Positions 11,382-28,261 of a DNA stretch of 30,938 nucleotides are shown here, one piece after another. The notes beneath the pieces were generated by a model, which was not told the origin of the DNA, searched no databases, and saw only the letters and a program-made list of their open reading frames with translations. This stretch comes from Coxiellaceae bacterium. Its GTDB lineage: Bacteria > Pseudomonadota > Gammaproteobacteria > Coxiellales > Coxiellaceae. The translations under genes were made by a program, and so were the position numbers. The first letter of the stretch is position 1; the number at the start of each line of letters is the position of its first letter. Location of the stretch: assembly GCA_041746415.1 (NCBI GenBank), contig JBGTHB010000062.1, positions 1 through 30,938 of the forward strand, read 5' to 3'.

Positions 11382-11398
11382 GCACACGTGAAAGGTGA

Positions 11399-11470
11399 GT
11401 CATGGCGAGCGAGGTACGAGCGTCGCCATCCATATGCCGATGTTTTTAGCAGCACTCATACATGGATCAC
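11399..11470 (+). repeat. Copy 1 of a ~70-bp tandem direct repeat containing a hairpin followed by a T-run
   Basis: gtcatggcgagcgaggtacgagcgtcgccatccatatgccgatgttttt recurs almost identically at 11541. It carries a 7-bp stem, atggcga paired with tcgccat. It sits just 3' of the mfd stop, so it may act as the mfd terminator. Confidence 0.75.
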
Positions 11471-11507
11471 GACGCTCGATGACTCACTCGTGATGACAGA
11501 AAAAGAA
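11458..11507 (+). repeat. Member of a ~45-50 bp intergenic repeat family with consensus catggatcac[g/t]acgc...cgtgatgaca[g/c]aaaaag
   Basis: Here the element reads atggatcacgacgctcgatgactcactcgtgatgacagaaaaag. It contains a 7-bp inverted repeat, atcacga paired with tcgtgat. Related copies lie at 25951 and 29853. Confidence 0.6.
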
Positions 11508-11540
11508 TTGCACACGCACGTATCGTCAGAAAAAAATCTT

Positions 11541-11612
11541 GTCATGGCGAGCGAGGTACGAGCGTCGCCATCCATATGCCGATGTTTTTTAGTAGCACCT
11601 ATACATAGATTG
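11541..11612 (+). repeat. Copy 2 of the tandem direct repeat, 142 bp downstream of copy 1
   Basis: Near-identical to 11399-11455, with one extra T and agc changed to agt. The following ~15 bp are also similar (catacatggatca versus ctatacatagatt). Confidence 0.75.
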
Positions 11613-11739
11613 TTACGCGTGTTGTACGCACTCTCAATTCTAAATAAATTTATTCAAAACAAAACCACGATTTATTCTGCTTAAATTACAAACAAATCCC
11701 TGTATTGTCACTAAAAAAAATAATCTGCAAAATCACGCC

Positions 11740-12258
11740 ATGCAAAAAATCTTGTTTACGATTGATGAAGTTAAGCATGACGAAAAATTCACGCATACCG
11801 TGAATAGTTTTATTTTATGCGCTGGGGAAAAATCAATGCAGCTATGGTCGGATAATAAAGCCATGACACTTAATAATGGTGACACCATTCGCTATCAGCA
11901 ATATTTTCTTACTGTGCACATTATTAATGAACGCAATCAAGCAGTGACGCAACAAAAACTAAATTGGCTAAGTCCACTGCAAACCGATTTAAATCACCAA
12001 ACTCGACAATTAAGCCATCCCTTTTCTCATACAGCGACAGATCCATTCGATCCCCTTGCCTTTTTAGCGCCAGCAACTCAAGCGCCGGATATTTTCTCGC
12101 CGGCAATTTCGCTTGCACATGAGCCTGTGTCTTATCGTGCACCGGAGGCCATACAAAAAGCCACCGAATACGCTAACAAACCTAAGCTGCTTGAGCGTAT
12201 CAAACAAACCAGTAAAAAAATTTGGCGAACCACCAAGCCCGGAGTAAATCAATGGTGA
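11740..12258 (+). CDS. Hypothetical Pro-rich protein immediately upstream of tssJ; possible degenerate FHA-like N-terminus
   Basis: The 172-aa ORF has a C-terminal half rich in Pro, Ala and Ser. The N-terminal ~60 aa end in LNNGDTIRYQQYFLTV, which weakly resembles the last strands of an FHA domain. The GR/SxxH FHA signatures are absent, so this is only a guess. It overlaps the tssJ start by 7 bp. Confidence 0.4.
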   Translation: MQKILFTIDEVKHDEKFTHTVNSFILCAGEKSMQLWSDNKAMTLNNGDTIRYQQYFLTVHIINERNQAVTQQKLNWLSPLQTDLNHQTRQLSHPFSHTATDPFDPLAFLAPATQAPDIFSPAISLAHEPVSYRAPEAIQKATEYANKPKLLERIKQTSKKIWRTTKPGVNQW

Positions 12259-12701
12259 AATTATGGCAGACACTGCTGCTGACATTATTGCTATGTGCAT
12301 GTTCGCACGGTGCAAGACAAGCGAATTTAGCCGTAACCACAGCGCACTATCTTAATCCTGATGTGTCTGGTCGGCCTGCACCGATAGTAGTATCAATTTA
12401 TCAACTTAAATTTGCCAATCGTTTTAGTCAAACAGATTACCAACAATTAAATGATAACGCCGCCAACCTTCTAGGCGATAATTTAATTGACCGACAAGAT
12501 ATTGAAATTAGACCAGGCGAACACCGCACGGTTCATATTGATCTTGCCCAAGACACAGAATTTATCGGTTTAGTCGCTCATTATCGTAATATTAATGCAG
12601 CAAAATGGCGTGCGGTTATAAGCGCCCCGCCCAAAACAAGCGCTCTTAATTTAAATATCGAGCTTGAAGCGCAAGCGCTAAGCGTTGAACGAGTACGATA
12701 A
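12252..12701 (+). CDS. tssJ: Type VI secretion outer-membrane lipoprotein TssJ
   Basis: The start was moved to MVKLWQTLLLTLLLCACS, which carries a lipobox (LCAC|S); a GGAG ribosome-binding site lies 7 nt upstream. The SciN/VasD-family motif PIVVSIYQLK is present. The gene lies upstream of tssK-tssL-tssM. Confidence 0.8.
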   Translation: MVKLWQTLLLTLLLCACSHGARQANLAVTTAHYLNPDVSGRPAPIVVSIYQLKFANRFSQTDYQQLNDNAANLLGDNLIDRQDIEIRPGEHRTVHIDLAQDTEFIGLVAHYRNINAAKWRAVISAPPKTSALNLNIELEAQALSVERVR

Positions 12702-12748
12702 TAACGATAAAAATAATGTGTAAATTTAAAAAAGTTGCGGAACTATAA

Positions 12749-14050
12749 ATGCAAAGTAATCGAGTCAACTGGGCTGAAGGGTTGTTTCTAAAACCTCAAC
12801 ACTTTCAACAACAAGAACGCTACTTTGAATATTCCATTACACAAAAATATCACCAACTCGGTGATCATTTGTGGGGAATCAAGACGCTGTCTTTTAATCA
12901 AGAACTATTGCAACAAGGTAAATTGGCTTTAGACTCAGCAAGCGGCTTTTTTGCCGATGGAACGGGCTTTAATTTTCCAAATTGCGATTGCAGCCCAGAT
13001 GCCATCACCATCCCAAATAATACTAAAAACCAAATAGTTTACCTTGCTTTGCCGGTAATCAAACATAATGAATACCATCAACGCTACTCCCACGCCCACC
13101 TCAACCTACTCGATCAATCCACCAACGATTTTGATTGTGATGATATAGAAATAGCAAAAATTAAACCCATACTAAAACTTTCAAGCCACGAGCTAGACAA
13201 TTATCTGGTTATTCCACTAGCTAAAATTACAGAATGTCGCACTGATAACAGCATTCAACTTGATTCAAATTTTATTCCAACAGCCATTCAAACTCAGGCC
13301 TTTGCAAAGTTAGCCCAAATGGCAGTTGAAATATTGGAGTTGCTCAATCATCGCTCGCATGCTTTATCGCAACGCCTAACCGACGTAGAACAGTCAGCTA
13401 CTGCTGAAATCACTGACTTCATGCTGCTGCAATTAGTGAATCGCTATGAAGCAGTATTTTTCGATTTAACGAATACTGCTGTTTTACACCCGCGGCAATT
13501 GTATCAAGCGTTAATACAATTGCTCAGTGAGCTAAGCACATTTACAAATGACAAACGTCGCGTCGCAAACATGTGTGTTTATAATCATCAAGATCTTGCC
13601 ACCACTTTTATGCCCTTAATGCACCAGCTACGTCATGAACTCAGTACTGTATTGGTTCAATCTGCCGTAGCAATAACACTTGAACCACGCGGTGCTGGCA
13701 TCTTTGTCGGCATTATAAATGAAAAAAGTTTACTAGATGATTGTCACTTTATATTAGCAATTAGCGCAGATATACCTAGCGAAACATTACGTAAAACATT
13801 GCCATCGCAAATAAAAATCGCCCCTGTTGAACAACTGCACAATTTAGTAATGCGTTCTTTACCTGGTATTGAAATTGAAAATTTAGCTATTGCACCCAGA
13901 CAAATTCCCTATCACAGCAATTTTTTATATTTTCAAATTAATAAACAACACTCACTATGGCAATCGTTGCCACAATCTGCCGCATTGGCTTTACATTTAA
14001 CGGGATTGTTACCTGGATTGAAACTGGAATTATGGGCAGTACGAGGATGA
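12749..14050 (+). CDS. tssK: Type VI secretion baseplate protein TssK
   Basis: The N-terminus MQSNRVNWAEGLFLKPQHFQQQERY matches the canonical TssK N-terminus. The length is 433 aa. Confidence 0.9.
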   Translation: MQSNRVNWAEGLFLKPQHFQQQERYFEYSITQKYHQLGDHLWGIKTLSFNQELLQQGKLALDSASGFFADGTGFNFPNCDCSPDAITIPNNTKNQIVYLALPVIKHNEYHQRYSHAHLNLLDQSTNDFDCDDIEIAKIKPILKLSSHELDNYLVIPLAKITECRTDNSIQLDSNFIPTAIQTQAFAKLAQMAVEILELLNHRSHALSQRLTDVEQSATAEITDFMLLQLVNRYEAVFFDLTNTAVLHPRQLYQALIQLLSELSTFTNDKRRVANMCVYNHQDLATTFMPLMHQLRHELSTVLVQSAVAITLEPRGAGIFVGIINEKSLLDDCHFILAISADIPSETLRKTLPSQIKIAPVEQLHNLVMRSLPGIEIENLAIAPRQIPYHSNFLYFQINKQHSLWQSLPQSAALALHLTGLLPGLKLELWAVRG

Positions 14051-14787
14051 AGCATCAACACCACAATCCCTATCTGGCATGCACCCAAACGGTTATCACC
14101 TTATTATTGCAAGTTAAGCATCAAGCTCAGCAACCCGATTATCAAAAATTGCACGCTCAATTTATTAATGAGATCCAGCAAGTAGAAATTTATTTGCGCC
14201 AACAAGGAGTGAGCGAACGTCAGGCATTGTCTACCCGCTACTGCTTATGTGCAGTTACTGATGAGGCCATATTATCGACTAATTGGGGCGTACAATGCGG
14301 CTGGTCACAACAAACCTTATTGAGCTTGTTCCATCAAGAAACCTGGGGCGGTGAGCGCTTTTATTTAATCTTAGAAAATGCACTGAAAAACATGCGCGAT
14401 AACCTTGATTTTATCGAATTACTGTATGTTTTATTAAGCCTGGGCTTTGAAGGTAAATTTTATAATAAAGAAGCCGTTGTCCGCGAACAAATTCGTAACC
14501 GCTTATTCTACGCCATACGCCATGCCCGCGGTAAAGTGACCAGACAACTTTCAACACACGCTTATGATCCCGAACCATTTATGTTGCATCACCAAAACCG
14601 TCGCTCACTCAAAAAATTTGCTTACGTTTGTTTATCTCTATTTTTACTCATCAATCTCAGTTATAACTTGAGGTTAAATCACGTTGCCGATCCACTAACC
14701 CAACAATTAGCGCAATTAGCCCAAATTTCACCAGTAACCGTTTTTAGCCAATTTACCGACATTAAACGTACAAGGCCAAACTCATGA
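14047..14787 (+). CDS. tssL: Type VI secretion membrane protein TssL (DotU family)
   Basis: DotU core motifs are present: STRYCLCAVTDEAIL, LLSLFHQETWGGERFY and IELLYVLLSLGFEGKFYN, with a single C-terminal TM. The start was moved to the ATG at 14047, which overlaps the tssK stop (ATGA). Confidence 0.9.
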   Translation: MKHQHHNPYLACTQTVITLLLQVKHQAQQPDYQKLHAQFINEIQQVEIYLRQQGVSERQALSTRYCLCAVTDEAILSTNWGVQCGWSQQTLLSLFHQETWGGERFYLILENALKNMRDNLDFIELLYVLLSLGFEGKFYNKEAVVREQIRNRLFYAIRHARGKVTRQLSTHAYDPEPFMLHHQNRRSLKKFAYVCLSLFLLINLSYNLRLNHVADPLTQQLAQLAQISPVTVFSQFTDIKRTRPNS

Positions 14788-17700
14788 GACGTTACTGGGA
14801 TATCATTAAGCAGTTTTGCACTCATGTCGTCAGCATGATTAAACAATCCACTAAAAAAATATGGACAATTAGCCAACGCTACTACACCAAACAGAAATTA
14901 TTTGTTAGCGAAAAACGTCAATTTACTTCACTTCACAAACAACCCTGGTATTTTGTTTTAGGTGAATCACAGTCTGGACGTAGCCAATTAATCGCCCACA
15001 GCGGTTTTCACAGTGAAGCAAATCATTTGTTGAGTAAAGCTTGTGAATTTTACAAAGCGCTTTTTCCTCGTTTAAGTTGGGATTTTAATGCCAATACCTG
15101 CTTTATCACTAACAAAGACGAAACTTTTTTTGAAGATGAAGCCAACATCAAACCTTGGTTAAAAACCCTGGCGAGGCACCGCCGCCAACAACCATTAAAC
15201 GGCGTTATTATGACGATTGATATCAATGAGTGGTTGTATCAAGATAAATCTCAACAGCAGCGATTAATTCAACGTTACGCTAAATTGTTGATTCGTTTAA
15301 GTCAGCAATTAAAAGAACAAATACCGGTTTATTTGGTCTGGACTAAAATGGACAGACTAATTGGTTTTAATGAATTTTTCCATGAACTGTCTCGCGAAGA
15401 GCTGGAGCAAATTTGGGGTCTCACTTTTCCAATTACAAAAATTACTGATCTCACGTTGCTACGACAGTTTCTACATCAAGAATACCCTAAGTTAGTGCAA
15501 CGATTACAAGAACGTGTTATTCATCTATTAGACAGTGAAAAATCAGCCGCGGCTCGCGAATTAATTTATGCTTTCCCGCAACAAATTCAATTATTAGCGC
15601 AACCCATTGCTGATTTTATCCACCAGCTGATTAGCGCGCTGCCGCAGTTTAATTTGATTCATTTACGGGGATTTTATTTTACTAGCGCCTCCCAAACGGG
15701 CCAACAGCATAATTTGCTATTGCACAGCATTGCCAATGAATTTTCACTGGTGCCGATTGCACCGACTGTTTCAACGCTCAATCAAGAATGTTATTTTATT
15801 CGCAATTTATTCGAACAACTCATTTATCCTGAAAGCAGAATAATGGGATTCAGCCATCAAACTCGTAAACGCAAGCAGTACACTTATCAAAGCGCGTGGC
15901 TAGTTATTCCGCTATTATTAATATACGGTATTTGGCAAACAGCAATCAGCTACCACTATGAAATCCATTACTTAACTGCTCTTAAATCAAAGATTGCCTA
16001 CTATAAGCACTTACGCAATAATTTGGATTTTCACAATCCCGATATCACCACTACGTTACCGCTGCTACAGCAAGCACATCGTATATTGAACCCAATTCAT
16101 CATTATGCGCATTTTGGCATGAATTTATTGTTTAATTCACATCAATTACGCACTCAAGCAAACAATTTAATGCAAAGAACATTGGCCAGTTTTTTTGTGC
16201 CTCGTATCGCCTTAACACTAGAAAATCAATTACACCATAATAAGATGAACATTAATTTTCGCTATGCGACATTAAAAGGCTATTTGGTTTTTAACCCACA
16301 AAACCAAGCACCTACCAATAATCTAATTGCACCAATGAAAATTTATTGGGCGCAACACTTTAAAGGCAAACCGAATACGTTGTTAGCGCTTAATTATTAC
16401 CTCAATCAAGCGGTACTGTTTCCTCAAACCGCCTTACCGATTGATCACGATCTGGTTAGTCAAAATCGCGATCTGTTACAGCAAGTGATTCCGTCTCAAC
16501 GAGCCTATGTATTATTGCAATTTGAAAGCCGCGCTAGTGCACTCAACGATATTAATTTTGCGCAATTGACTGGCAGCGCTATTGACAGTGTTTTTGTCAA
16601 CAGCACCACATTACCAAAAATTCCTGCGTTTTATACCCTAGCTGGTTTCCAACATATCTTTTCATATCAACTGAACAATATTGCTAATGAAGTAGCCAAC
16701 GATAATCACGAAATTGGCTTAAGCAGCGTAACCTATGGTTCACCTTCTGCAACAGATATTAAAGATCAAGTTAAAACACAATATAGCCAAGATTACCTAA
16801 ATCAATGGGACAACGCGCTTAAGGCGCTTGACGTCAAGTCTTTTGACACTTATGACAATGCGGAAAAAATCTTAACGCTGTTAGGCAGCAATCAATCGCC
16901 TTTATTTCATGTGTTGAACATTGTTAAGCGTAATACCACAACCATTGACGATGACAGCATCCAAGTGAAGCAACATTTTTACGCCTTGAATCATTTTTAC
17001 GACCATTCTCAAGCTGAAAAATTGAGCGCTAGTTTCACTGCCATCAAAACCTATTTGCAAACTATCCAAAATCAAAATGATCCTAATAAAGCTGCCTTTG
17101 ATGCTGCTAAACAGTATTTTATGGGCGCCAAAAATCCAATTTATCAATTACAGCAATTAGCCAAAGATGCACCTGCTCCAGCTAAACGTTGGCTAGAAAC
17201 CATTGCCGATAACACGCTGGCATTAATTTTCGCGCACGCGCGCGATTATATTAATGCGCAATGGCAAAAGGACATCATTCTTCCATACGGCAACGAGGTG
17301 ATGGGGCACTATCCTATTAACATTCACGCTGTAGCGCAGCTCGATCTTAATACCTTCCAAACACTTTTTGCACCAAAAGGTAAATTGGATCAATTTTTTG
17401 TGCAGTTCATCCAACCCTTTGTCAATTCAGACGGGCCAAATTGGCAATATTACCAACGTGAAAATGGTTCTATTGAATTATCTACTGCTACGCTGGTTTT
17501 ATTTGAGCGCGCTAAACGCATTCAAAACGATTTCTTTAATAACACATCAGGCACGCCAAGTCTGGAATTAACAATTGAGCCACGCTTGCTTGATACTAAT
17601 TTAATGCGCTTTAATTTAGCTATTGGTAATCAAAATTTAGCGTACGCTCACGGTCCGCGCCAAAGCCTTGCCCTACATTGGCCACTGGGTATATTGAATC

Positions 17701-17945
17701 AAAGCGTAACGCTTTCCATGATAGATTTTAATCATAACCCCGATGAATTCCACAGCAGCGGTCCCTGGTCATTGTTTAAATTATTTGATCGAGGACAGTG
17801 GCAACCGGGCAACAACCCAAATAATTACAACTTAATACTTTATTTTAACCACCGTGTTGTAGAGCTAACCATCAACAGCACATTGCCTTTAGCTACATTG
17901 AAATTAACTGATCTCGAACATTTTAACTTGGTGAGTACTTTATGA
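14784..17945 (+). CDS. tssM: Type VI secretion membrane protein TssM (IcmF-like); atypical, with no N-terminal TM hairpin and a degenerate Walker A
   Basis: The 1053-aa protein lies 3' of tssL with an ATGA overlap. A P-loop-like segment PWYFVLGESQSGRSQL (nt 14961-14984) is followed by a central TM (WLVIPLLLIYGIWQTAI) and a long periplasmic C-terminal region, which together give IcmF-like architecture. Confidence 0.75.
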   Translation: MRRYWDIIKQFCTHVVSMIKQSTKKIWTISQRYYTKQKLFVSEKRQFTSLHKQPWYFVLGESQSGRSQLIAHSGFHSEANHLLSKACEFYKALFPRLSWDFNANTCFITNKDETFFEDEANIKPWLKTLARHRRQQPLNGVIMTIDINEWLYQDKSQQQRLIQRYAKLLIRLSQQLKEQIPVYLVWTKMDRLIGFNEFFHELSREELEQIWGLTFPITKITDLTLLRQFLHQEYPKLVQRLQERVIHLLDSEKSAAARELIYAFPQQIQLLAQPIADFIHQLISALPQFNLIHLRGFYFTSASQTGQQHNLLLHSIANEFSLVPIAPTVSTLNQECYFIRNLFEQLIYPESRIMGFSHQTRKRKQYTYQSAWLVIPLLLIYGIWQTAISYHYEIHYLTALKSKIAYYKHLRNNLDFHNPDITTTLPLLQQAHRILNPIHHYAHFGMNLLFNSHQLRTQANNLMQRTLASFFVPRIALTLENQLHHNKMNINFRYATLKGYLVFNPQNQAPTNNLIAPMKIYWAQHFKGKPNTLLALNYYLNQAVLFPQTALPIDHDLVSQNRDLLQQVIPSQRAYVLLQFESRASALNDINFAQLTGSAIDSVFVNSTTLPKIPAFYTLAGFQHIFSYQLNNIANEVANDNHEIGLSSVTYGSPSATDIKDQVKTQYSQDYLNQWDNALKALDVKSFDTYDNAEKILTLLGSNQSPLFHVLNIVKRNTTTIDDDSIQVKQHFYALNHFYDHSQAEKLSASFTAIKTYLQTIQNQNDPNKAAFDAAKQYFMGAKNPIYQLQQLAKDAPAPAKRWLETIADNTLALIFAHARDYINAQWQKDIILPYGNEVMGHYPINIHAVAQLDLNTFQTLFAPKGKLDQFFVQFIQPFVNSDGPNWQYYQRENGSIELSTATLVLFERAKRIQNDFFNNTSGTPSLELTIEPRLLDTNLMRFNLAIGNQNLAYAHGPRQSLALHWPLGILNQSVTLSMIDFNHNPDEFHSSGPWSLFKLFDRGQWQPGNNPNNYNLILYFNHRVVELTINSTLPLATLKLTDLEHFNLVSTL

Positions 17946-18928
17946 ATGCAAATGCCGACACATTAAAAACGGCCAATCAAGATATACGCCAATCCCCTAA
18001 TTTGGCCACACTTTATTTTGATACCAAGAGCCAGCGCAATGATGCTAAACGCATGGAGCGTGAAGCGGTGTTAAATGAAACATCACTGCAACTTGCTTTA
18101 CCACTTTGGCAGGCACTTGAATCTCAATGCGACACGATCTTAGCTGAACACAGCAAAGATATTGAAGTGTGCTGCTGGCTAATCGAAGCCCGTGTGCGTA
18201 CCGACGGTATAACTGGTCTTATTACCGCGTGGCAGTATACAACTGATTTACTGCGTACCGTTGGCTTAGCCTGTCAACCTAATAACCCACTGGACTATTT
18301 AGCCAAATTGCATGAAGGTGGCAACACCAATTCGTTAAGCGGTTATTTACGATTCCTACCCATCACCGACAATACTGCTATTAGCGCCAACTTTCAGGCT
18401 TGGCAATATGAGGCCAAGAACAATGATGCTCAGCTTGCCCATGCGCTTACTGCTGCTATCCAGTCTTCGCCTTTGTCGTTCTATCAACAACAGTTACAAT
18501 TTATCGCAACAGCAAAAACCACATTTACCACGTTGTGTGAAGTTGCCCACGCTCTGGATAACAAACAAGCGCCTAGTAAAACGCATTTTTTAGATGCCTT
18601 AAATCAACTTGAACTTATATTCAGCGATATCGTGCAACAGCATTTCCCGCAAACACGAGCTGAAATAAAAACACAAACAAGTCCCCGCCTTGCTTCAAGC
18701 ACAAATTCACCATCCACTACTAGCGCTTTAACACGTGAAACAGCACTGCAACAAATAGAAACGTTGTCGCATTTTTTTGAGCAAACTGAACCGCACTCAC
18801 CTTTAATTTTTTTGCTTAAGCGTTGCGTTGAATGGGGTAAGTTACCCTTACCTAAACTACTTGAACAAATGATTACGGACGACACCACACGTGACAAATT
18901 GTGTAATTTAATCGGCATAAAATTATAA
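17942..18928 (+). CDS. tssA: Type VI secretion protein TssA (ImpA N-terminal domain family)
   Basis: The ImpA_N-like segment SKDIEVCCWLIEARVRTDGITGLITAWQYTTDLL follows the SKDL-V--WL-EA-pattern of that family. The gene overlaps the tssM stop (ATGA) and lies immediately upstream of tssB and tssC. Confidence 0.65.
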   Translation: MNANADTLKTANQDIRQSPNLATLYFDTKSQRNDAKRMEREAVLNETSLQLALPLWQALESQCDTILAEHSKDIEVCCWLIEARVRTDGITGLITAWQYTTDLLRTVGLACQPNNPLDYLAKLHEGGNTNSLSGYLRFLPITDNTAISANFQAWQYEAKNNDAQLAHALTAAIQSSPLSFYQQQLQFIATAKTTFTTLCEVAHALDNKQAPSKTHFLDALNQLELIFSDIVQQHFPQTRAEIKTQTSPRLASSTNSPSTTSALTRETALQQIETLSHFFEQTEPHSPLIFLLKRCVEWGKLPLPKLLEQMITDDTTRDKLCNLIGIKL

Positions 18929-18984
18929 CTACTCAAAAAATAATGAACATAATCTACAAAACGACAATGAACTAGGAGGCCACT

Positions 18985-19506
18985 ATGATCGAAAGCATAC
19001 ATAATAAACTTGAACGCGTACGCAAACCCCGCGTCCACATTAAATATGAAGTGGAAACAAATGATGGGGTAGCGCAGCATGAACTGCCTTTTGTGGTCGG
19101 CGTTATGGGCGATTTCTCAATGGATAACACACAAAACCGTAAACCTTTGCGTGAACGTAAATTTATTGAAATTGATCGCGATAATTTTGATAACGTCATG
19201 CAACGCATGAACCCACAGCTGTCCATCCGCGTAAAAAATGTTTTCACCACAGCAGAACAAGAACTACCGGTAACCTTGTCGTTTGCCTCCCTTGATGATT
19301 TTTCGCCAGAAAACCTCACTGACGCCATACCAATGCTTAAAAAATTAAAAGCGCTGCGACATATGCTGCGTGATTTACTCAGCCAAAGCGATCGTTCACC
19401 ACAACTTGAAGCACTACTTGAACAAGCCCTAAAAGAACCTGAAGTGTTGGCAAAACTCAGTGCTGAACTCAGCAACCAACCTAATTACACTGCGGAGTCT
19501 GTATAA
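18985..19506 (+). CDS. tssB: Type VI secretion sheath small subunit TssB (VipA)
   Basis: The translation KLERVRKPRVHIKYEVETNDGVAQHELPFVVGVMGDFS is the canonical TssB sequence. An AGGAGG ribosome-binding site lies at 18965-18970. Confidence 0.92.
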   Translation: MIESIHNKLERVRKPRVHIKYEVETNDGVAQHELPFVVGVMGDFSMDNTQNRKPLRERKFIEIDRDNFDNVMQRMNPQLSIRVKNVFTTAEQELPVTLSFASLDDFSPENLTDAIPMLKKLKALRHMLRDLLSQSDRSPQLEALLEQALKEPEVLAKLSAELSNQPNYTAESV

Positions 19507-20963
19507 TGAGCACAGTTATTGATAAATCAACCTTATTAAAATCCGAAACAAATATTTTTAATTTAGCGTTACAAGCCAATGATCATAGAGACACCCACAA
19601 AACGACACAGCTTTTAACAGCGTTAGCAAAAAATATAACAGATGGTATGCTCAGTTGGGATAAAAGTGTGATTAATTCCATTAATCGCGCCATTGCGAAA
19701 TTAGATAATCTAATTTCGCAGCAGCTGGCTGAGGTTATGCACCATCCGCGTTTTAGTGCATTGGAAGGTTCATGGCGCGGCATGAATTATTTAGTTAATC
19801 ATTCTGAAACCTCGTCTTTACTTAAAATAAAACTCATGGATGTTAAAAAATCAGAACTACAATTGGATTTTGAACGTGCTTTAGAATTTGACCAAAGCAG
19901 CTTGTTTAAAAAAATATATGAGTCTGAGTTTGGTATGCCAGGCGGCGAACCTTATGGTGTTTTAATTGGTGATTATACTTTTACTCAACATCCACAAGAC
20001 ATTAACCTACTTCAAGGACTAGCCGGTGTTGCTGCCGCCAGTTTTTGTCCCTTCCTATCCAGTGCTGATGCGCAATTATTTGGTTTCAGTGACTGGAGCA
20101 AGTTATCCCAACCACGCGATTTAAAGAAAATTTTTGAAAGCACAGATTACATTAAATGGCGTCAATTTCGTGAAACTGAAGACTCTTGTTTTATTACCTT
20201 AACCCTGCCACGTGTGTTAGCACGTCTTCCTTATGGTGAAGCAACAAAACCAGTTGCTGAGTTTAATTATGAAGAACAACAGCCACATAGTCATGGTTAT
20301 TGTTGGATGAACGCCGCCTATCCGCTTGCTACTAAAATCACGGATGCTTTTGCTAAAACGGGTTGGACAACAGCCATTCGTGGTGCAGAAGGAGGAGGTA
20401 AAGTTGAAGATTTGCCATTGCATATTTTTACTAGCGACGATGGCGATTTAGACGCGCAATGCCCAACGGAAGTTGGCATTACCGATCGGCGCGAAGCCGA
20501 ACTTTCTCAACTGGGTTTTTTACCTTTGTGTCATTATAAAAACACAGACTACGCTGTCTATTTTGGTGCAGAAACGCTGCACAAAGCAAAACAGTATGAT
20601 CGTGTGGATGCTACCGAAAACGCACGTATCGCAGCTCGCCTACCTTATGTATTAGCTACCTCTCGATTTGCACATTATTTAAAAATTATGGCGCGGGATA
20701 AAATCGGTTCATATCAAGAAGCCAGTGACTGTGAAATTTGGCTAAACCATTGGATTTTAAATTTTGTAAACAATAACGCTTCGACTAAGCAAGATTTAAA
20801 AGCGAAGTACCCATTGGCAGATGCCAAAATTGAAGTGAAACCTATTCCAGGAAAGTCCGGGGCATATCACGCTATTGCCTGGCTGCGCCCATGGCTACAA
20901 ATGGAAGAGCTAACGGCTTCATTACGCCTGGTAACAAGCATTCCCAAACGAGGTGGTCAATAG
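19506..20963 (+). CDS. tssC: Type VI secretion sheath large subunit TssC (VipB)
   Basis: The 485-aa protein carries PGGEPYGVLIGDY, LPRVLARLPYG and FAHYLKIMARDKIGSY. It overlaps the tssB stop by 1 nt. Confidence 0.92.
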   Translation: MSTVIDKSTLLKSETNIFNLALQANDHRDTHKTTQLLTALAKNITDGMLSWDKSVINSINRAIAKLDNLISQQLAEVMHHPRFSALEGSWRGMNYLVNHSETSSLLKIKLMDVKKSELQLDFERALEFDQSSLFKKIYESEFGMPGGEPYGVLIGDYTFTQHPQDINLLQGLAGVAAASFCPFLSSADAQLFGFSDWSKLSQPRDLKKIFESTDYIKWRQFRETEDSCFITLTLPRVLARLPYGEATKPVAEFNYEEQQPHSHGYCWMNAAYPLATKITDAFAKTGWTTAIRGAEGGGKVEDLPLHIFTSDDGDLDAQCPTEVGITDRREAELSQLGFLPLCHYKNTDYAVYFGAETLHKAKQYDRVDATENARIAARLPYVLATSRFAHYLKIMARDKIGSYQEASDCEIWLNHWILNFVNNNASTKQDLKAKYPLADAKIEVKPIPGKSGAYHAIAWLRPWLQMEELTASLRLVTSIPKRGGQ

Positions 20964-20968
20964 TCATC

Positions 20969-22054
20969 ATGCCAAGCAGCCATGCGGTCCAAAACCATAA
21001 GCAACGCTGGATTATACTAAAGCTTATTAACCTATGTGATGAAAAAATTCATCAAACGCTTGCGGATATTGAAAATAATGCCAACTGGCAGCAGCTTGCT
21101 GCCAGTTGGCAAGGTTTGCAATGGCTGGTTGACACAACGCAACTGTCTACCAAACAAACCAAAATTAAATTACTCAATATCAAACCCCATGAAGCACTGA
21201 CTGATTTAGCGCTGAGCGATGATTTGACTAACAGTCATTTATACGAATTAATTTATCATCGCGAATTGGATTTTCCAGGTGGCGAACCCTTTGGGATTAT
21301 CATAGCGGATTTTTACAATGAAATTCGCTTGCTGCAATTGCTTGCTTATTTGGCGCAAGAAGCATTAACCATATTGTTAACTTCAACAACCCATCCCGAT
21401 AGCAATGATCATCTCACTTGGTCAGCGTTTGTCTGCGTGAGCTACCCTGCTGTGCGCATCAACACCCAGCTTTTTGTTAGCAGCAGTTATGCAGTCGCTA
21501 TTATTATTGCTTTAACTTTCCAACAAACAGGCTGGTTTTCACAAATCACCGATCATGCAATTAAAGCGCCTTTTATTGAGCCTGCGCATTATGAATTTAT
21601 TGATTCATTTACACCTGATACGAAGGTGTATTTGAGTGACAAACAAACTGATCAGCTAGCAACAAAAGGAGTGATTGGCATCAAATCATTGCATCTCAGT
21701 CATCAATTGGCTTTTTTCCATGCTGTTAGCGCAACACAGCAACAACCGTTAACACATCTTTTATGCGGCTGTCGTTTTGCACATTACTTAAAAGCGATTT
21801 TGCGCAACAAAACCGGTAATTTCACCACCACCGACCAATGCCAGCAATTATTACAAAAATGGTTATTAGGTTATTGCGCACAAAGTTCAGATTTGTCATC
21901 CGATTTAGCAGCACGCTACCCTTTAAAATCCGCTCATGTCACAGTAAAAGCGAACCAAACCAATCGCAGCGAATTTATTTGCCAGTTGTCATTAGTGCCT
22001 CATTGGCAACTTAACCAATTGGAAACCAAACTGCGTATTTTAATTAAGGTATAA
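20969..22054 (+). CDS. Truncated, divergent TssC paralog (TssC-like sheath-domain protein) sitting where hcp usually lies
   Basis: Several segments align with the upstream TssC. SWQGLQWLV matches SWRGMNYLV. FPGGEPFGIIIADFY matches MPGGEPYGVLIGDYTF. CRFAHYLKAILRNKTGNF matches SRFAHYLKIMARDKIGSY. The C-terminus ARYPLKSAHVTVKA matches AKYPLADAKIEVKP. About 100 residues are missing relative to TssC. The start was set at the ATG at 20969, 5 nt after the tssC stop. Confidence 0.7.
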   Translation: MPSSHAVQNHKQRWIILKLINLCDEKIHQTLADIENNANWQQLAASWQGLQWLVDTTQLSTKQTKIKLLNIKPHEALTDLALSDDLTNSHLYELIYHRELDFPGGEPFGIIIADFYNEIRLLQLLAYLAQEALTILLTSTTHPDSNDHLTWSAFVCVSYPAVRINTQLFVSSSYAVAIIIALTFQQTGWFSQITDHAIKAPFIEPAHYEFIDSFTPDTKVYLSDKQTDQLATKGVIGIKSLHLSHQLAFFHAVSATQQQPLTHLLCGCRFAHYLKAILRNKTGNFTTTDQCQQLLQKWLLGYCAQSSDLSSDLAARYPLKSAHVTVKANQTNRSEFICQLSLVPHWQLNQLETKLRILIKV

Positions 22055-22055
22055 T

Positions 22056-22481
22056 ATGACTAATTCAACGCATCAACAATTAATTAACGACATTAAAATA
22101 GCACTTGAAGAGTTACTCAACACACGCAAACACTATTATTTTAATATTAAACGCTGGCCGCTTGTGACCAAATCCATTTTAGGCTATGGCTGTTGTGACT
22201 TTTCTAAAATGATCAATGGTTCGCAACTTACTTTTGCCACTGTGGAATTTGAAATAAAACAAGCAATCGAGCAGTTTGAGCCACGGGTTCAACACGTGTC
22301 GGTGCATATTGAATACAGCGAGCAACAACAGCTTTTCCTTACTATCACGGTTGAATTAAAAAACACGCAAAACATAGCGCTTTATTTACAATCCAATGCT
22401 CTTAACACCGCGCACTCAATAAAATTAAAAGGTCAGGAAAATGCTGCAAACGATTTTGGACTATTATCAAACCGAGCTTGA
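22056..22481 (+). CDS. tssE: Type VI secretion baseplate protein TssE (gp25-like)
   Basis: The 141-aa protein has LEELLNTRK and IKQAIEQFEPRVQHVSV, which correspond to the TssE LLNTR-G and FEPRL motifs. Confidence 0.75.
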   Translation: MTNSTHQQLINDIKIALEELLNTRKHYYFNIKRWPLVTKSILGYGCCDFSKMINGSQLTFATVEFEIKQAIEQFEPRVQHVSVHIEYSEQQQLFLTITVELKNTQNIALYLQSNALNTAHSIKLKGQENAANDFGLLSNRA

Positions 22482-24069
22482 AGCATTGTATGAACAAGCA
22501 CTTTATTTTGCTAAAGCGCATCCACAATACGCCAGCCAACTTGGTATATTGCCTTTTGCCATAAAAAACCCTGAGTTGGAACGCTTATTACAAGGAACCG
22601 CTTTTTTAACAGCGCGCATACAAAAAAAAATAGATGGCGATTTTAAACAAATAAGTCATGTCTTGTTGACAGCAATAATGCCAGCATTGTTACAGCACTC
22701 ACCAGCAGCGGGTATTGCGTGCTATCAACCTAATAGTGACCCCAGCGACAACTTCATCCTAGAGAAATCAACACCTTTTCATGCCACCACTACCACCGGT
22801 GACACAGTAATTTTCACAAACCCACAGCCAGTTCATATCAGCAAAGCTAAAATAAAAAGCACCCTCTATAAAAGAACCACCCACGGGGCGGAGCTGGTTA
22901 TTAAGCTCAGCTGTGTAGATAACAACACTCTGAATTTTTACCTTAATACCAACAATCAATCTGCTCACGCTGTCATAACCGCACTTTTGCAAAGTCGCAT
23001 TAGCACTACTCATCAGCCTCAGGAGCCGCACTTACAGCTTTATGCGTTAGCAGCACAAAATTGCTGGCTTGCTCAACCCGCTAATCTTTTATTTATTTAC
23101 CAAATTATACGTGAATTTTTTCACTACCCTCTTAAAAGACAATTCTTCAGCTTAACTAATCTTTGCGTATACAATGAAGCGGTAGACATTACGTTTTATT
23201 TTAAAAAATTTGATACGCAGTTTGAACGCCTAATCCATACCAATTTATTGCAACTCAATTGCTTCCCGCTTATCAACCAATATTCAACTACATGCGAACC
23301 GATTAAGCTCAATCATGACGTAGCGCAACAAACTATTCAACTTGACAATATCATTGCGATTGAAAATGTGACTGCCTATAAAAATGATGGTGAAATGATT
23401 AATGTTGCGCCGTTGTTGGAAAATCCTTCAAGTGCAACTGAGTTGTGCTATTACGCGCACTACAACACCGAGCTAAATAAAACTCAGCTAAGTTTTAACT
23501 CTAGCCAAGACTATGCGCAAATTGATTTACTGGAAGTGCAAGCCTTAAAAAGCAATCAAGAAGCGATTGAAACCATTTTAAATGATTCAGCAAATCTTGC
23601 TGCTCATGATGAAACTCAACTCGATAGCGCCGTCTTGTGTTGGCAAAGCCAACTCTACCCCGGTAGTTTCAACCAAATTAACCAGCAACATTATTGGCAA
23701 TTAATCGCGTTGTTAAATCAACCACTACAATACGCACCAGCCCATGCGGATGCTGTTTTAAGTCAACTAAAATTATTATTACGCGCACTGCATCCAGCCT
23801 CAGCATCAAAATTCTCCGGCTTAATTGATGACTTATCTCAACTGAGCATTAAATTGATTACGGGTCGATCACGTACAGCTGGCTTTTCGGCCGTGACTTA
23901 CGGTTACGAATTTAATTTACTAGTGGACACTGACGACGGCAATAAGTCGGAATTATCCTTGTTAGGCTTATTACTCTTTCATTATTTACAAGCCACTGTT
24001 GAAATGAACCGCTTTGTTATTTTAATTTTGCGCAACAAACAACATCAGGTATTGCACCAATGGCAATAG
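22441..24069 (+). CDS. tssF: Type VI secretion baseplate protein TssF
   Basis: The N-terminus MLQTILDYYQTELEALYEQALYFAKAHPQYASQLG...ELERLLQGTAFLTARIQKKIDGDF is the canonical TssF N-terminus. The protein is 542 aa and overlaps tssE by 41 nt. Confidence 0.85.
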   Translation: MLQTILDYYQTELEALYEQALYFAKAHPQYASQLGILPFAIKNPELERLLQGTAFLTARIQKKIDGDFKQISHVLLTAIMPALLQHSPAAGIACYQPNSDPSDNFILEKSTPFHATTTTGDTVIFTNPQPVHISKAKIKSTLYKRTTHGAELVIKLSCVDNNTLNFYLNTNNQSAHAVITALLQSRISTTHQPQEPHLQLYALAAQNCWLAQPANLLFIYQIIREFFHYPLKRQFFSLTNLCVYNEAVDITFYFKKFDTQFERLIHTNLLQLNCFPLINQYSTTCEPIKLNHDVAQQTIQLDNIIAIENVTAYKNDGEMINVAPLLENPSSATELCYYAHYNTELNKTQLSFNSSQDYAQIDLLEVQALKSNQEAIETILNDSANLAAHDETQLDSAVLCWQSQLYPGSFNQINQQHYWQLIALLNQPLQYAPAHADAVLSQLKLLLRALHPASASKFSGLIDDLSQLSIKLITGRSRTAGFSAVTYGYEFNLLVDTDDGNKSELSLLGLLLFHYLQATVEMNRFVILILRNKQHQVLHQWQ

Positions 24070-24869
24070 CGGATTTTTTTCATATAGTACATTCCTTGCA
24101 GCTAACCGCCACTAAACCGTTGCAGTTTGCTGCAGCACACTCAACTACCGTGAATTTAAATGACATTGATAAAATCACGGCCACTGCGGACGCGGTGTGC
24201 ATCCACATTAACTTTATGCAACTCTATGGTGTCTCTGGCATCATGCCTAATAACGACTTTGAAAAATTTCATGAATCAGCTCAGCAACGTGCGCCCGCCT
24301 TTGCTCAATTTACTCAACTGTTTCAGAATCACTTAACGCATTTACTCGTTAACGCTTGGCAATGCAATCAACCCACGCTGCAAATTAATCGTCTTAAGCG
24401 CACTCTAACTGAATGTTTTGATCTCAAAGATAACAACCTGGTGCCATACGTAAATTATATTCTGCGGCGACCGATTAGTACGTCCGCACTGCAACAATTG
24501 CTTAGCTCTCATTTAAGTTTGCCAGTGCGCATTAGTGAAAATAGTGGTAAATGGCTTGAAATAAATCAGGCAGAATACACACTGCTTGGTAAATCTTTTA
24601 ATAAGCTCGGTGCCACCAGTATGCTGGGAAAACGATTCTTTTCTCCCAGTGCCGCCGTGGGTATCGCTATTGGCCCATTAGATTACGCTAATTACTGTCA
24701 GCTCATTAAAGGCAAACAGCAACGTGCAGCTATTGAAAAAATGCTAGCGGCAGTGATGGATGCATGCGTTACAGCTCAGATAGCATTGCAATTACCTACA
24801 GCAGCACGTCCACCCTTACTATTAAGCAAAAACAGCCAGTTACAGCTTGGTTTTCATCTGTGGTTTTGA
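24060..24869 (+). CDS. tssG: Type VI secretion baseplate protein TssG (short form)
   Basis: VCIHINFMQLYGVSGIMPNNDFEKF...FAQFTQLFQNHLTHLLVNAWQ matches the TssG core. The protein is 269 aa and overlaps tssF by 10 nt. Confidence 0.7.
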   Translation: MAIADFFHIVHSLQLTATKPLQFAAAHSTTVNLNDIDKITATADAVCIHINFMQLYGVSGIMPNNDFEKFHESAQQRAPAFAQFTQLFQNHLTHLLVNAWQCNQPTLQINRLKRTLTECFDLKDNNLVPYVNYILRRPISTSALQQLLSSHLSLPVRISENSGKWLEINQAEYTLLGKSFNKLGATSMLGKRFFSPSAAVGIAIGPLDYANYCQLIKGKQQRAAIEKMLAAVMDACVTAQIALQLPTAARPPLLLSKNSQLQLGFHLWF

Positions 24870-25810
24870 ACACTAGCAGCTTCAGCGTTAACTTCATCAA
24901 ATTGTTTGCAACTCAAATTAGCTACAAACACGCTCAAAAGTGTGCTCAATAAAATATTCTTATTTTGTAAAATTACTGTCGCCAAAATTAAATTGACTAT
25001 TATGCGTATCGTAAACTGTACTGAATAACGCATTAAACGAGTTTGACCTAATAAAAAACTATCCAATTTTTTAGCTGGCAATAAATATTGTACTGCAAAA
25101 CTAATAGCAGCAAAAAATAGCAGAGTACCTTTAAACTGTTCTAGAAGTGCAAATAGATCTGTTTCCCAGTTTTCACCGCTAAACAGACATGACTCGGGGA
25201 ATGATTGGCAGTGATTAAAACTATTTGCAGCCTGTTCCAACTGGCTGTTGTTATAATCACGTTCTCGCAAATGACAAAGCAGATTGGGCAGGGTTACCTT
25301 ATTTATAAGATAATGGCTGTGGTTATAAACAGCCTTGCCATTATGTAATACAGGATATTTAGGGAAAGCTCCCATATTAGACGAATGAATCATATCGTGC
25401 ACAAACGAAAAATTGCTGTTGCACCAATTAATAATTTCTTCTTGGCTCTTGCCTAAAAAGGCATAATCAGTCTCATGATCTCTTTTAAGTTTAATAAATT
25501 GATCGCATACATCCTTAACCATATTTCTTCTAAAAAATAGTGAAAACCTCTCCTGGCTAAGCTTACCTTTAACACAGGATTGCAAATAGGGAGCGCCAAA
25601 ACCATGTAAGCTCAATATGGCATTTTTAAATTTCGCATCAACGAAAATATGTGCACCAGGTAAAAGATCGAACATAAAACAATTTCTATTTATCTCACAT
25701 TCAGCAAGACGACGCATACCGACAATAAAAGGCTTTAGTACACGCCTTAAATAAGCTCCGTCGGTCCAACTACCGAGGATAGCTTGTATTTCTTCTGACG
25801 ACATTCGCAT
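24854..25810 (-). CDS. Hypothetical protein of unknown function with a hydrophobic C-terminal region (2-3 predicted TM helices); convergent with tssG and overlapping it by 16 bp
   Basis: The 318-aa ORF shows no family signature I can recognise. The last ~90 aa are hydrophobic (LLFFAAISFAVQYLLP...IIVNLILATVILQ...LLSTLLSVFVANL). Confidence 0.5.
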   Translation of the reverse strand: MRMSSEEIQAILGSWTDGAYLRRVLKPFIVGMRRLAECEINRNCFMFDLLPGAHIFVDAKFKNAILSLHGFGAPYLQSCVKGKLSQERFSLFFRRNMVKDVCDQFIKLKRDHETDYAFLGKSQEEIINWCNSNFSFVHDMIHSSNMGAFPKYPVLHNGKAVYNHSHYLINKVTLPNLLCHLRERDYNNSQLEQAANSFNHCQSFPESCLFSGENWETDLFALLEQFKGTLLFFAAISFAVQYLLPAKKLDSFLLGQTRLMRYSVQFTIRIIVNLILATVILQNKNILLSTLLSVFVANLSCKQFDEVNAEAASVQNHR

Positions 25811-26766: not shown

Positions 26767-26920
26767 GTCTGATTCAATCCTTTGTTCAGGGTGCTAACTT
26801 TATTATATCTTTGGCATTATATCCTTGGGAAGTGACGCTTGCCAATTATTTGTTCGCAACTCGCATTTTTAATCACGAATAGTGTATTATCTCCCCCAAT
26901 TAAATCAAAAAGGATTGGCT

Positions 26921-28261
26921 ATGAAATTGTTGCGCTTCACCTTAATCCCATTGCTCCTCATTGTTTTGACTCCACCCTCTGCGATATTAATTTGGTATAC
27001 CAACACCACACTCGGCGGTTCGCTTTACGCCTTGTGGCAACAATTTTTGAGTAACGGGTTTATTTCAACGTTATACCATATTTGGTCACCGGTATTTTTT
27101 GGCTCAGCAAAAGCATGGGGCATTATTTTTATTTTCGCAGCAACACAACTGCTACTAATGCGGTTGGTGCCGGGCAAAAAAGAATATGGCCCAGTTACCC
27201 CTCAAGGCAACACACCGGTTTATAAAGCCAATGGTTTTACTTGTTTTGTGATCACAATTTCATTATTTGTCGTCACCAGTTTTGGCTTACACTGGTACTC
27301 ACCCGCCATTGTCTACAACAATTTTGGCGCAATTTTGGGTGCATTAAATTGTTTTAGTTTGTTGTTTTGTGTTGGTTTATATTTGAAGGGGCGCTTCAAA
27401 CCTTCAACTAGTGATGCTGGCATAACGGGCAATATTCTCTTTGATTACTACTGGGGCACAGAACTTTATCCTCGTGTTCTAGGCTGGGACATCAAACAGT
27501 TTACCAACTCACGCTTTGGCATGATGAGCTGGCCAATTATTATTTTGTCGTTCGCTGCCAAACAAGATCAGTTGTACGGTTTGAGCAATTCTATGTGGGT
27601 CGCGGTGGCCATCATGTTGGTTTATATCGGTAAATTCTTTTTATGGGAAATGGGCTACATGCGCTCACTGGATATCATGCACGACCGCGCTGGTTATTAT
27701 ATTTGCTGGGGTTGTTTAGTCTGGGTGCCTGCGGTTTACACTTCGCCGATTCTATATTTGGTCAATCATCCAATAGAGCTTAACGAACTCAGCGCGTTTT
27801 TAATTTTAATCGCTGGTATTAGCAGCGTACTTATTAATTTCTGGGCGGATAAACAGCGACTGCGAGTGCGCGCCACCAATGGCAACTGCACAGTTTGGCG
27901 CAAACCACCCGTGCTTATTAAGGCCAACTACACCACGGCAACAGGCGAGCAAAAACACAGTTTATTATTAGCTTCAGGTTGGTGGGGCGTGGCGCGGCAT
28001 TTTCATTATGTGCCAGAAATCCTCGGTGCTTTTTTTTGGACGTTACCCGCACTGTTTCATCATTTGTTACCCTGGTTTTATGTTATCTTTTTAACCGTAT
28101 TATTGTTGCATCGCTCACTCCGTGATGAACAACGCTGCCGCTTAAAATACGGCATTTATTGGCAGCAGTATTGTGAGAAAGTGCCGAATCGCTTGCTCCC
28201 AGTGATAATAACCCGTACCTTAAACCAACTGCTCTTTTTCTGGAAATCTTCAGTAAATTAA
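26921..28261 (+). CDS. Sterol reductase, ERG4/ERG24/DHCR7 family (eukaryotic-type delta-7 or delta-14 sterol reductase homolog)
   Basis: This is a polytopic membrane protein. Its C-terminal signature LLASGWWGVARHFHYVPEI...HLLPWFYVIFLTVLLLHRSLRDEQRCRLKYGIYWQQYCEKVPNRLLP aligns residue by residue with the DHCR7 and ERG24 signature (GxWGxxRHxxY...LLxHRxxRDxxRCxxKYGxxWxxYCxxVPYRIxP). The start was moved to MKLLRF, which has an AAGGA ribosome-binding site. Confidence 0.9.
   Translation: MKLLRFTLIPLLLIVLTPPSAILIWYTNTTLGGSLYALWQQFLSNGFISTLYHIWSPVFFGSAKAWGIIFIFAATQLLLMRLVPGKKEYGPVTPQGNTPVYKANGFTCFVITISLFVVTSFGLHWYSPAIVYNNFGAILGALNCFSLLFCVGLYLKGRFKPSTSDAGITGNILFDYYWGTELYPRVLGWDIKQFTNSRFGMMSWPIIILSFAAKQDQLYGLSNSMWVAVAIMLVYIGKFFLWEMGYMRSLDIMHDRAGYYICWGCLVWVPAVYTSPILYLVNHPIELNELSAFLILIAGISSVLINFWADKQRLRVRATNGNCTVWRKPPVLIKANYTTATGEQKHSLLLASGWWGVARHFHYVPEILGAFFWTLPALFHHLLPWFYVIFLTVLLLHRSLRDEQRCRLKYGIYWQQYCEKVPNRLLPVIITRTLNQLLFFWKSSVN

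Follow-up and report, generated by a model that had tools for sequence, protein, structure and literature searches.

Among the described type VI secretion systems (T6SSs), those of 'group 5' in Rhizobiaceae, which are encoded by the imp locus (Atu4330-4352 in Agrobacterium tumefaciens, and a plasmid-borne locus in Rhizobium tumorigenes), carry an ImpC-type and an ImpD-type tssC gene one directly after the other, and a tssE-F-G block follows the two. Consecutive tssC genes have been described as a feature of this group, and their meaning for the sheath has been called unclear (PMC5813230). The two TssC homologs of A. tumefaciens, Atu4341/ImpC (TssC41) and Atu4340/ImpD (TssC40), are each needed for Hcp secretion and are not redundant (PMC3702570). 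Here we describe a T6SS locus with the same pair of tssC genes, followed by the same tssE-F-G block, in a window of 30,938 nt, which is the whole of contig JBGTHB010000062.1 from a fragmented NCBI assembly that has no annotated proteins. The locus belongs, as a streamlined and divergent member, to the known ImpC/ImpD lineage of canonical T6SSs (T6SSi), and its gene order has already been annotated in cultured bacteria. Quite probably its genes form the structural core operon of a streamlined T6SSi of this lineage, related to 'group 5' of Rhizobium/Agrobacterium, whose missing parts are encoded elsewhere. What is distinctive about it are the uniformly short proteins, the absence of all accessory genes, the divergent baseplate and the uncultured gammaproteobacterial host.

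Eleven T6SS core genes, all intact and in the same orientation, are densely packed at 12252-24869 in the order tssJ-K-L-M-A-B-C-C'-E-F-G, where C' is the second tssC:

12252..12701, + strand: tssJ, outer-membrane lipoprotein of the membrane complex (PF12790, 121.5 bits; TIGR03352, 126 bits)
12749..14050, + strand: tssK, baseplate (PF05936, 430 bits)
14047..14787, + strand: tssL (DotU), short form without C-terminal extension (PF09850, 169 bits)
14784..17945, + strand: tssM (IcmF-like), with four IcmF domains (PF14331, PF06761, PF21070, PF06744)
17942..18928, + strand: tssA, short, 328 aa (PF06812, ImpA_N, 48.6 bits)
18985..19506, + strand: tssB, small sheath subunit (PF05591, 179 bits; TIGR03358, 174 bits)
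19506..20963, + strand: tssC of the ImpC type, large sheath subunit (VipB, 437 bits, and VipB_2, 143 bits; TIGR03355, 650 bits)
20969..22054, + strand: tssC', by sequence a short ImpD/TssC40 ortholog, 361 aa (PF05943, VipB, 110 bits, and PF18945, VipB_2, 94 bits)
22056..22481, + strand: tssE, gp25-like baseplate wedge (PF04965, 55 bits; TIGR03357, 59 bits)
22441..24069, + strand: tssF, baseplate (PF05947, 231 bits, full length)
24060..24869, + strand: tssG, baseplate, short, 269 aa (PF06996, 149 bits; TIGR03347, 149 bits)

These identities come from matches to Pfam and NCBIfam profiles, and all eleven genes score above the curated Pfam cut-offs; the family matches of TssK, TssF and TssG run nearly from end to end. 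The original prediction had named the same eleven genes, and its list holds except at the 5' end, where the open reading frame (ORF) at 11740-12258 is not tssJ, which starts at 12252. The cluster therefore has 12 co-oriented ORFs (11740-24869), 11 of which are T6SS core genes. The TssJ profile match sits in the ORF 12222-12701, whose likely start is the ATG at 12252 with GGAG upstream; the N-terminus from this start, MVKLWQTLLLTLLLCAC, is lipobox-like and resembles a lipoprotein signal, and an independent gene call on a 2.6-kb Logan contig (run SRR28170463) also gives a TssJ of 149 aa. There are no frameshifts or internal stops in the ORFs of the cluster, and the junctions from tssK to tssG are as tight as had been claimed: K/L (at 14047), L/M and M/A overlap in ATGA, B and C overlap by 1 nt, C and C' are separated by 5 nt and C' and E by 1 nt, and the overlaps of E/F and F/G are 41 nt and 10 nt. 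The G+C content of the window is even (0.36-0.46), with no compositional island at the cluster, and promoter and terminator scans gave nothing above chance. The ten window proteins tested all fall into nameless singleton clusters at 90% identity.

What could these genes build? Of the 13 core components of a canonical T6SSi (TssA-TssM), the window encodes TssJ, TssL and TssM for the membrane complex, TssE, TssF, TssG and TssK for the baseplate, TssA, and TssB/TssC for the sheath. In the machine proposed here the proteins would take just these places, the ImpC-type TssC forming the contractile sheath with TssB, and the shortened ImpD would be a second protein of the TssC fold. That the proteins look canonical (T6SSi) had been predicted and is confirmed, for all of them match the canonical Pfam/TIGR Tss models. 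A T6SS of the Francisella type (T6SSii), which is marked by a sheath of the IglA/IglB type and by FPI-specific components, is ruled out by these matches and by the greater nearness of the tssC' product (TssC') to TssC1 than to IglB.

Then, what is the second TssC? The window TssC' scores 208 bits on a profile of ImpD, the second copy, and 125 bits on one of ImpC, the first copy. In a neighbor-joining (NJ) tree rooted with the TssC of Campylobacter, an ImpC clade and an ImpD clade are separate. The window TssC' and its counterpart from the nearest related locus, a 7.7-kb contig (JGI 3300022686, hereafter L001), are sisters inside the ImpD clade with 99/100 bootstraps each, and the tssC of the window is the sister of the L001 tssC inside the ImpC clade (100/100). 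Since the tree splits the two clades, the duplication is ancient and not local, and a recent tandem duplication of the adjacent tssC is ruled out as the source of tssC'. Judged by sequence, TssC' is the ortholog of ImpD, TssC40 of Agrobacterium; relatives of TssC' in the databases often carry the label ImpD.

The protein is markedly short, as it is without positions 1-59 of the ImpD profile and has about 48 residues in place of most of positions 168-279. Its AlphaFold2 (AF2) model is confident and compact (pLDDT 85.7, pTM 0.83) and matches solved TssC sheath chains of T6SSs at TM 0.71-0.75. TssC' also matches P. aeruginosa TssC1 (5n8n; E 2e-30) better than IglB (E 3e-17). The 361-aa start was also called independently in the sequence collection. 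The confident compact model and the conservation in L001 rule out a pseudogene fragment. An exhaustive HMMER search with TssC' found a single close relative (P0002, 45%); among the ImpD-like proteins that it also gave, many are 390-450 aa long and a few about 350-380 aa. Nature seems to offer a 'deletion series' of ImpD, with 361-368 aa in the window and L001, about 445-490 aa in several relatives and typically about 510 aa; what can be lost, about 60 residues at the N-terminus and an internal block of about 110 positions, would mark what is dispensable for ImpD function.

How common is this arrangement? We compared a set of about 160 related loci, made up of 80 from a one-genome-per-species scan with TssC, L001, and 80 among the metagenome matches listed. 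In the 80 loci of the scan TssC is 57-63% identical to that of the window, and a second, more divergent tssC comes directly after tssC in 68 of 81 loci (the 80 and L001), the others being mostly contigs that end there. At least 80 metagenome loci show this pattern likewise, and ImpD directly follows tssC in most of the whole set. The usual order in the relatives is tssA-tssB-impC-impD-(tagJ)-tssE-tssF-tssG-clpV-(hcp); the locus of Rheinheimera maricola (L024), for example, reads J-K-L-M-tagF-pppA-A-B-C-impD-impE-E-F-G-clpV-hcp. The window TssC is 73% identical to that of L001 and 57-63% to ImpC proteins of ImpD-bearing loci. Among plasmid-borne proteins it is 60.5% identical to that of Azospirillum argentinense and 56.5-57.2% to those of Rhizobium, in both cases from records with two tssC genes, and among the matches listed it is at most 48% identical to TssC of Vibrio, Ralstonia, E. 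coli and Campylobacter. A more distant plasmid cluster, that of Vibrio europaeus (TssC 48% identical), likewise has a second sheath gene after tssC, with tssE next. A metagenome scan with TssF gave no matches, and one with a TssC alignment gave none closer than 62% among the matches listed, L001 not being recovered there.

The marks of an ImpC/ImpD-type T6SS can be compared one with another. Two consecutive, non-identical TssC homologs, the second in the ImpD clade, are there, and by identity TssC is closest, among the matches listed, to the TssC of ImpD-bearing systems. A tagJ between impD and tssE, and regulation by Fha and TagF-PppA, are missing from the window; several relatives and the A. 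argentinense plasmid are also without TagJ. Lack of tssJ has been stated for rhizobial group 5, and the window has tssJ. Many gammaproteobacterial ImpD-bearing loci have tssJ as well, so that its absence defines only the rhizobial subset.

L001 carries tssM-A-B-C-C'(368 aa)-E before the contig ends, and its proteins are 35-73% identical to those of the window (TssC 73%, ImpD 42%). It follows that the short form of ImpD is old, as is the gene order, and that both have been maintained. Four further loci, like L001 from uncultured gammaproteobacteria (L003, L004, L083, L085), share the order tssJ-K-L-M-A-B-C with the window, and their TssM is 31-33% identical to that of the window, where most other loci typically give 20-26%. 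L003 (on contig CBDDKW010000005.1, 92.7 kb) differs from the window by an insert of four genes (11480-18219 of L003) that separates tssC from an ImpD of 444 aa. The insert holds a VgrG-PAAR fusion of 1163 aa and three unknown genes for 340-355 aa, two of which were scanned and had no Pfam match. L003 also has a DUF6931 gene upstream of tssJ, and DUF6931 recurs beside vgrG in other loci. In L004, an IS21-type pair (a Mu-transposase-like gene and an IstB ATPase gene; 174-2205) lies immediately upstream of tssJ. On two contigs of gammaproteobacterial metagenome-assembled genomes, L002 (600-5752) and L007 (4948-7575), tssG (PF06996, 321 bits) comes directly after a tssC whose product is 60-62% identical, and in L002 clpV comes after tssG. 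As impD, tssE and tssF are not found between tssC and tssG in either, these represent a different rearrangement of the same lineage.

The annotated order in R. tumorigenes is vgrG< hcp< tssH< tssA tssB tssC tssC tagJ tssE tssF tssG fha tssK tssL tssM tagF. In the rhizobial clusters, unlike the window, tagJ separates impD from tssE, and there are fha, tagF-pppA, ppkA and a divergent clpV-hcp-vgrG operon but no tssJ; their ImpD is about 460-495 aa long, against 361 aa in the window. Plasmid p4 of A. argentinense (NZ_CP032325.1), which gave the best plasmid match for TssC, has tssB-tssC-tssC-tssE-tssF-tssG without tagJ, which is the order of the window. It differs in that tagH, tssK-L-M and tagF are on the opposite strand, tssA is separate, and the 7 kb downstream of tssG contain hcp, tssH and vgrG. 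The T6SS of Campylobacter jejuni/coli is, like that of the window, a compact cluster of canonical type without clpV, but the cluster includes hcp and vgrG, an ImpD paralog is lacking, and the identity of its TssC to that of the window is only 37.5%. The H1-T6SS of P. aeruginosa (group 3) has the block tssA-B-C-X-(tagJ)-E-F-G in common with the window, X being hcp1 in H1 and ImpD here. In H1, hcp1 comes after tssC, and clpV1 and vgrG1 follow tssG. It had rightly been noticed that the TssC paralog of the window occupies the slot of hcp in H1, and from this and the missing genes a 'non-canonical' locus was proposed. This goes too far: a second tssC in place of hcp is no ground for the term, since the paralog is the ImpD/TssC40 of a large and widespread T6SS lineage, and the order from tssB to tssG is that annotated in A. 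argentinense p4. The possibility which the original prediction itself had raised against its claim, an already classified subtype with the same gene order, is largely what the gene-order comparison found.

Which parts are missing, and what does their absence tell us? Profiles of Hcp, ClpV, VgrG, TagF, PppA and ImpE/TagJ were built from Pfam-verified genes of the related loci. In a six-frame, stop-to-stop search of the whole 30.9-kb window, nothing better than E=1.3 was obtained for hcp, vgrG, clpV, tagJ, tagF or pppA (for ClpV, also called TssH, nothing better than E=1.9), and no window ORF of at least 80 aa has a matching Pfam domain. The absence of these genes from the window, predicted for hcp, vgrG and clpV, is therefore real. 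The genes ppkA and full-length tagH are likewise missing from the window, so that all accessory genes are missing. As the window is the whole contig, absence there says little about the genome; that a single contig of a draft assembly has no hcp, vgrG or clpV is weak evidence. Firing would need an Hcp tube and a VgrG/PAAR spike, which are most likely encoded together with effectors on other contigs, in hcp/vgrG islands. Orphan islands of vgrG, hcp and PAAR genes have been described as common (PMC10433429). The sheath would be recycled by a ClpV whose gene lies elsewhere or by a different Hsp100, for instance ClpB, or else it would not be recycled and the machine would fire for few rounds.

Several observations weigh against a complete system of which the core alone is seen here. 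No Hcp, VgrG, PAAR or ClpV is seen within the 30.9-kb contig. Among 74 related loci in which at least 3 kb after tssG is covered, clpV is one of the two genes after tssG in 48, and its absence here is therefore a minority state. The TIGR03363 score of TssA, 120 bits, is below the equivalog cut-off of 160.85. Moreover, most core proteins are shorter than the 5th percentile for the relatives, which could also reflect decay:

TssA: 328 aa in the window, median 373 aa in relatives
ImpC: 485 aa in the window, median 497 aa in relatives
ImpD: 361 aa in the window, median 511 aa in relatives
TssE: 141 aa in the window, median 163 aa in relatives
TssF: 542 aa in the window, median 610 aa in relatives
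TssG: 269 aa in the window, median 371 aa in relatives
TssM: 1053 aa in the window, median about 1180 aa in relatives

Are we looking at a relic, that is, at a decaying T6SS in a shrinking genome, which has lost its tube, spike and ATPase genes and whose remainder is shrinking and no longer a secretion machine? The uniform shortening, best seen in TssA, ImpD, TssF and TssG, would fit such a course, as would the loss of all accessory genes and the divergence of the baseplate proteins, which are only 20-27% identical to those of relatives. TssF is in this range, and a word-indexed search found no relative of it above 23%, while TssC keeps about 60%. However, none of the eleven ORFs is disrupted, and they are translationally coupled. 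Every protein remains recognisable by its family profile, with a match over nearly the whole length in TssK, TssF and TssG, and the model of the short ImpD is confident and compact and has the TssC fold. The shortened ImpD and the gene order are also kept in L001, with 42% identity, and this implies purifying selection over a long time. On this balance a relic is very improbable.

Another explanation takes the absences literally: the T6SSi may be truly minimal, with hcp and vgrG elsewhere and with no ClpV, TagJ, Fha or TagF, its sheath being recycled by ClpB as in Francisella or not at all, and its short ImpD and baseplate proteins being adaptations. It would explain why clpV, tagJ, full-length tagH, tagF and pppA are not in the contig, though they stand beside the same genes in most relatives. 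There are precedents, since a T6SSi without ClpV is known in Campylobacter (PMC3428339), a cluster without clpV has been published for P. putida, and the T6SS of Francisella is published to use ClpB. V. cholerae has been reported in published work to keep some T6SS activity without ClpV. Two relatives with a short ImpD (L040 and L091) are also without clpV in about 21 kb, yet they have hcp and vgrG. On the other side, only 31 kb of the genome is visible, clpV is not known to be absent from the whole genome in those relatives that have none nearby, and published loss of ClpV1 abolishes secretion in P. aeruginosa H1, which also has TagJ. We regard such a minimal system as unlikely. If it is true that the genome lacks ClpV, it would add one more ClpV-less T6SSi to those of Campylobacter and P. 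putida.

The proposal that the missing parts are encoded elsewhere finds parallels among the relatives. In 57 related loci with at least 8 kb covered upstream and at least 3 kb downstream, clpV is present in 45, hcp in 26 and vgrG in at least 4, and 9 of the 57 have none of the three within about 10 kb. Split arrangements thus exist in relatives, and the window is in the minority for its missing genes, not alone.

It would be a bolder step to imagine that twelve clustered genes and a remote hcp/vgrG are all there is, that ClpV, TagJ, full-length Fha and TagF are absent genome-wide, that the truncated ImpD has a changed role in the sheath, and that the lineage is host-associated. This whole combination is distinctly unlikely. 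As a speculation about its structural part, the truncated ImpD might form, for example, a terminal or baseplate-proximal layer of the sheath, the analogy being to extracellular contractile injection systems, whose extra sheath paralogs appear among the weaker fold matches of the TssC' model. Host association is hinted at by the short proteins and by a sterol reductase gene nearby.

The ORFs that border the core genes, and the neighbours on both sides, are as follows:

11740..12258, + strand: orf172, 172 aa, in the slot held by TagH (Fha) upstream of tssJ in many relatives
24854..25810, - strand: orf318, a convergent ORF that bounds the cluster, with no family match, and perhaps not part of the system
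5' neighbours in order: secD (- strand), yajC (- strand), tgt (- strand), MFS transporter, SPFH protein, mnmA, mfd, then a spacer of 358 bp
3' neighbours in order: orf318, YkuD-domain gene (- strand), ERG4/ERG24 homologue, TPR protein, NAGPA-domain gene (- strand), tRNA

The 3' end of orf172 overlaps the start of tssJ by 7 nt, and orf172 is also called as a gene in the sequence collection. It has no Pfam or NCBIfam match even at E<=10, and it is ruled out as TssJ or Hcp, whose profiles it does not match. Of all the window it gives the best match to a TagH profile made from the relatives, though a weak one (E=0.013), over the last FHA strands, 'LNNGDTIRYQQYFLTVHI'. Its single-sequence AF2 model is of low confidence (pLDDT 47), with an all-beta N-terminal part of 63 aa, and is too poor for a fold search. 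These hints point to orf172 as possibly a remnant of, or a minimal, FHA-like protein.

At the other end, the 3' end of orf318 overlaps tssG by 16 nt. No Pfam or NCBIfam match was found for it at E<=10, and no homolog in any of the related loci compared. It had been described as a convergent, unknown membrane protein; it is convergent and without a family, and two or three hydrophobic segments are at its C-terminus (hydrophobic 19-mers at 228-246 and 262-280), and the N-terminal part of about 220 aa is soluble. Further downstream, the eukaryotic-type sterol reductase that had been predicted is real: the gene at 26882-28261 (+ strand) encodes an ERG4/ERG24 homologue (PF01222, 226 bits), a kind of protein that bacteria do not usually have. 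On one flank it has the gene of the TPR protein, with a weakly methyltransferase-like N-terminus, and on the other the YkuD-domain gene.

On the 5' side, the Tgt protein gives some idea of the relationships of the host. Its identity is 77-80% to proteins encoded on short contigs from metagenomes, 71% to that of 'marine bacterium B5-7', an unclassified gammaproteobacterium and the best named relative, and 67-69% to those of Alteromonadaceae, Colwellia, Cognaticolwellia and Rheinheimera. No Legionella or Coxiella protein is among the top 120 Tgt matches, and a Legionellales affiliation is unsupported from these matches.

Finally, the spacer between mfd and the T6SS genes contains a 49-nt element, GTCATGGCGAGCGAGGTACGAGCGTCGCCATCCATATGCCGATGTTTTT, in two identical copies (11399-11447 and 11541-11589) that are 142 nt apart. 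There are no further copies in the window at up to 3 mismatches, and none would be expected by chance. An ORF of 98 aa at 11388-11684 is probably spurious because the element overlaps it. The element has an internal palindrome (ATGGCGA...TCGCCAT) and may be an element like repetitive extragenic palindromes (REP) or miniature inverted-repeat transposable elements (MITE), or a terminator-like hairpin.

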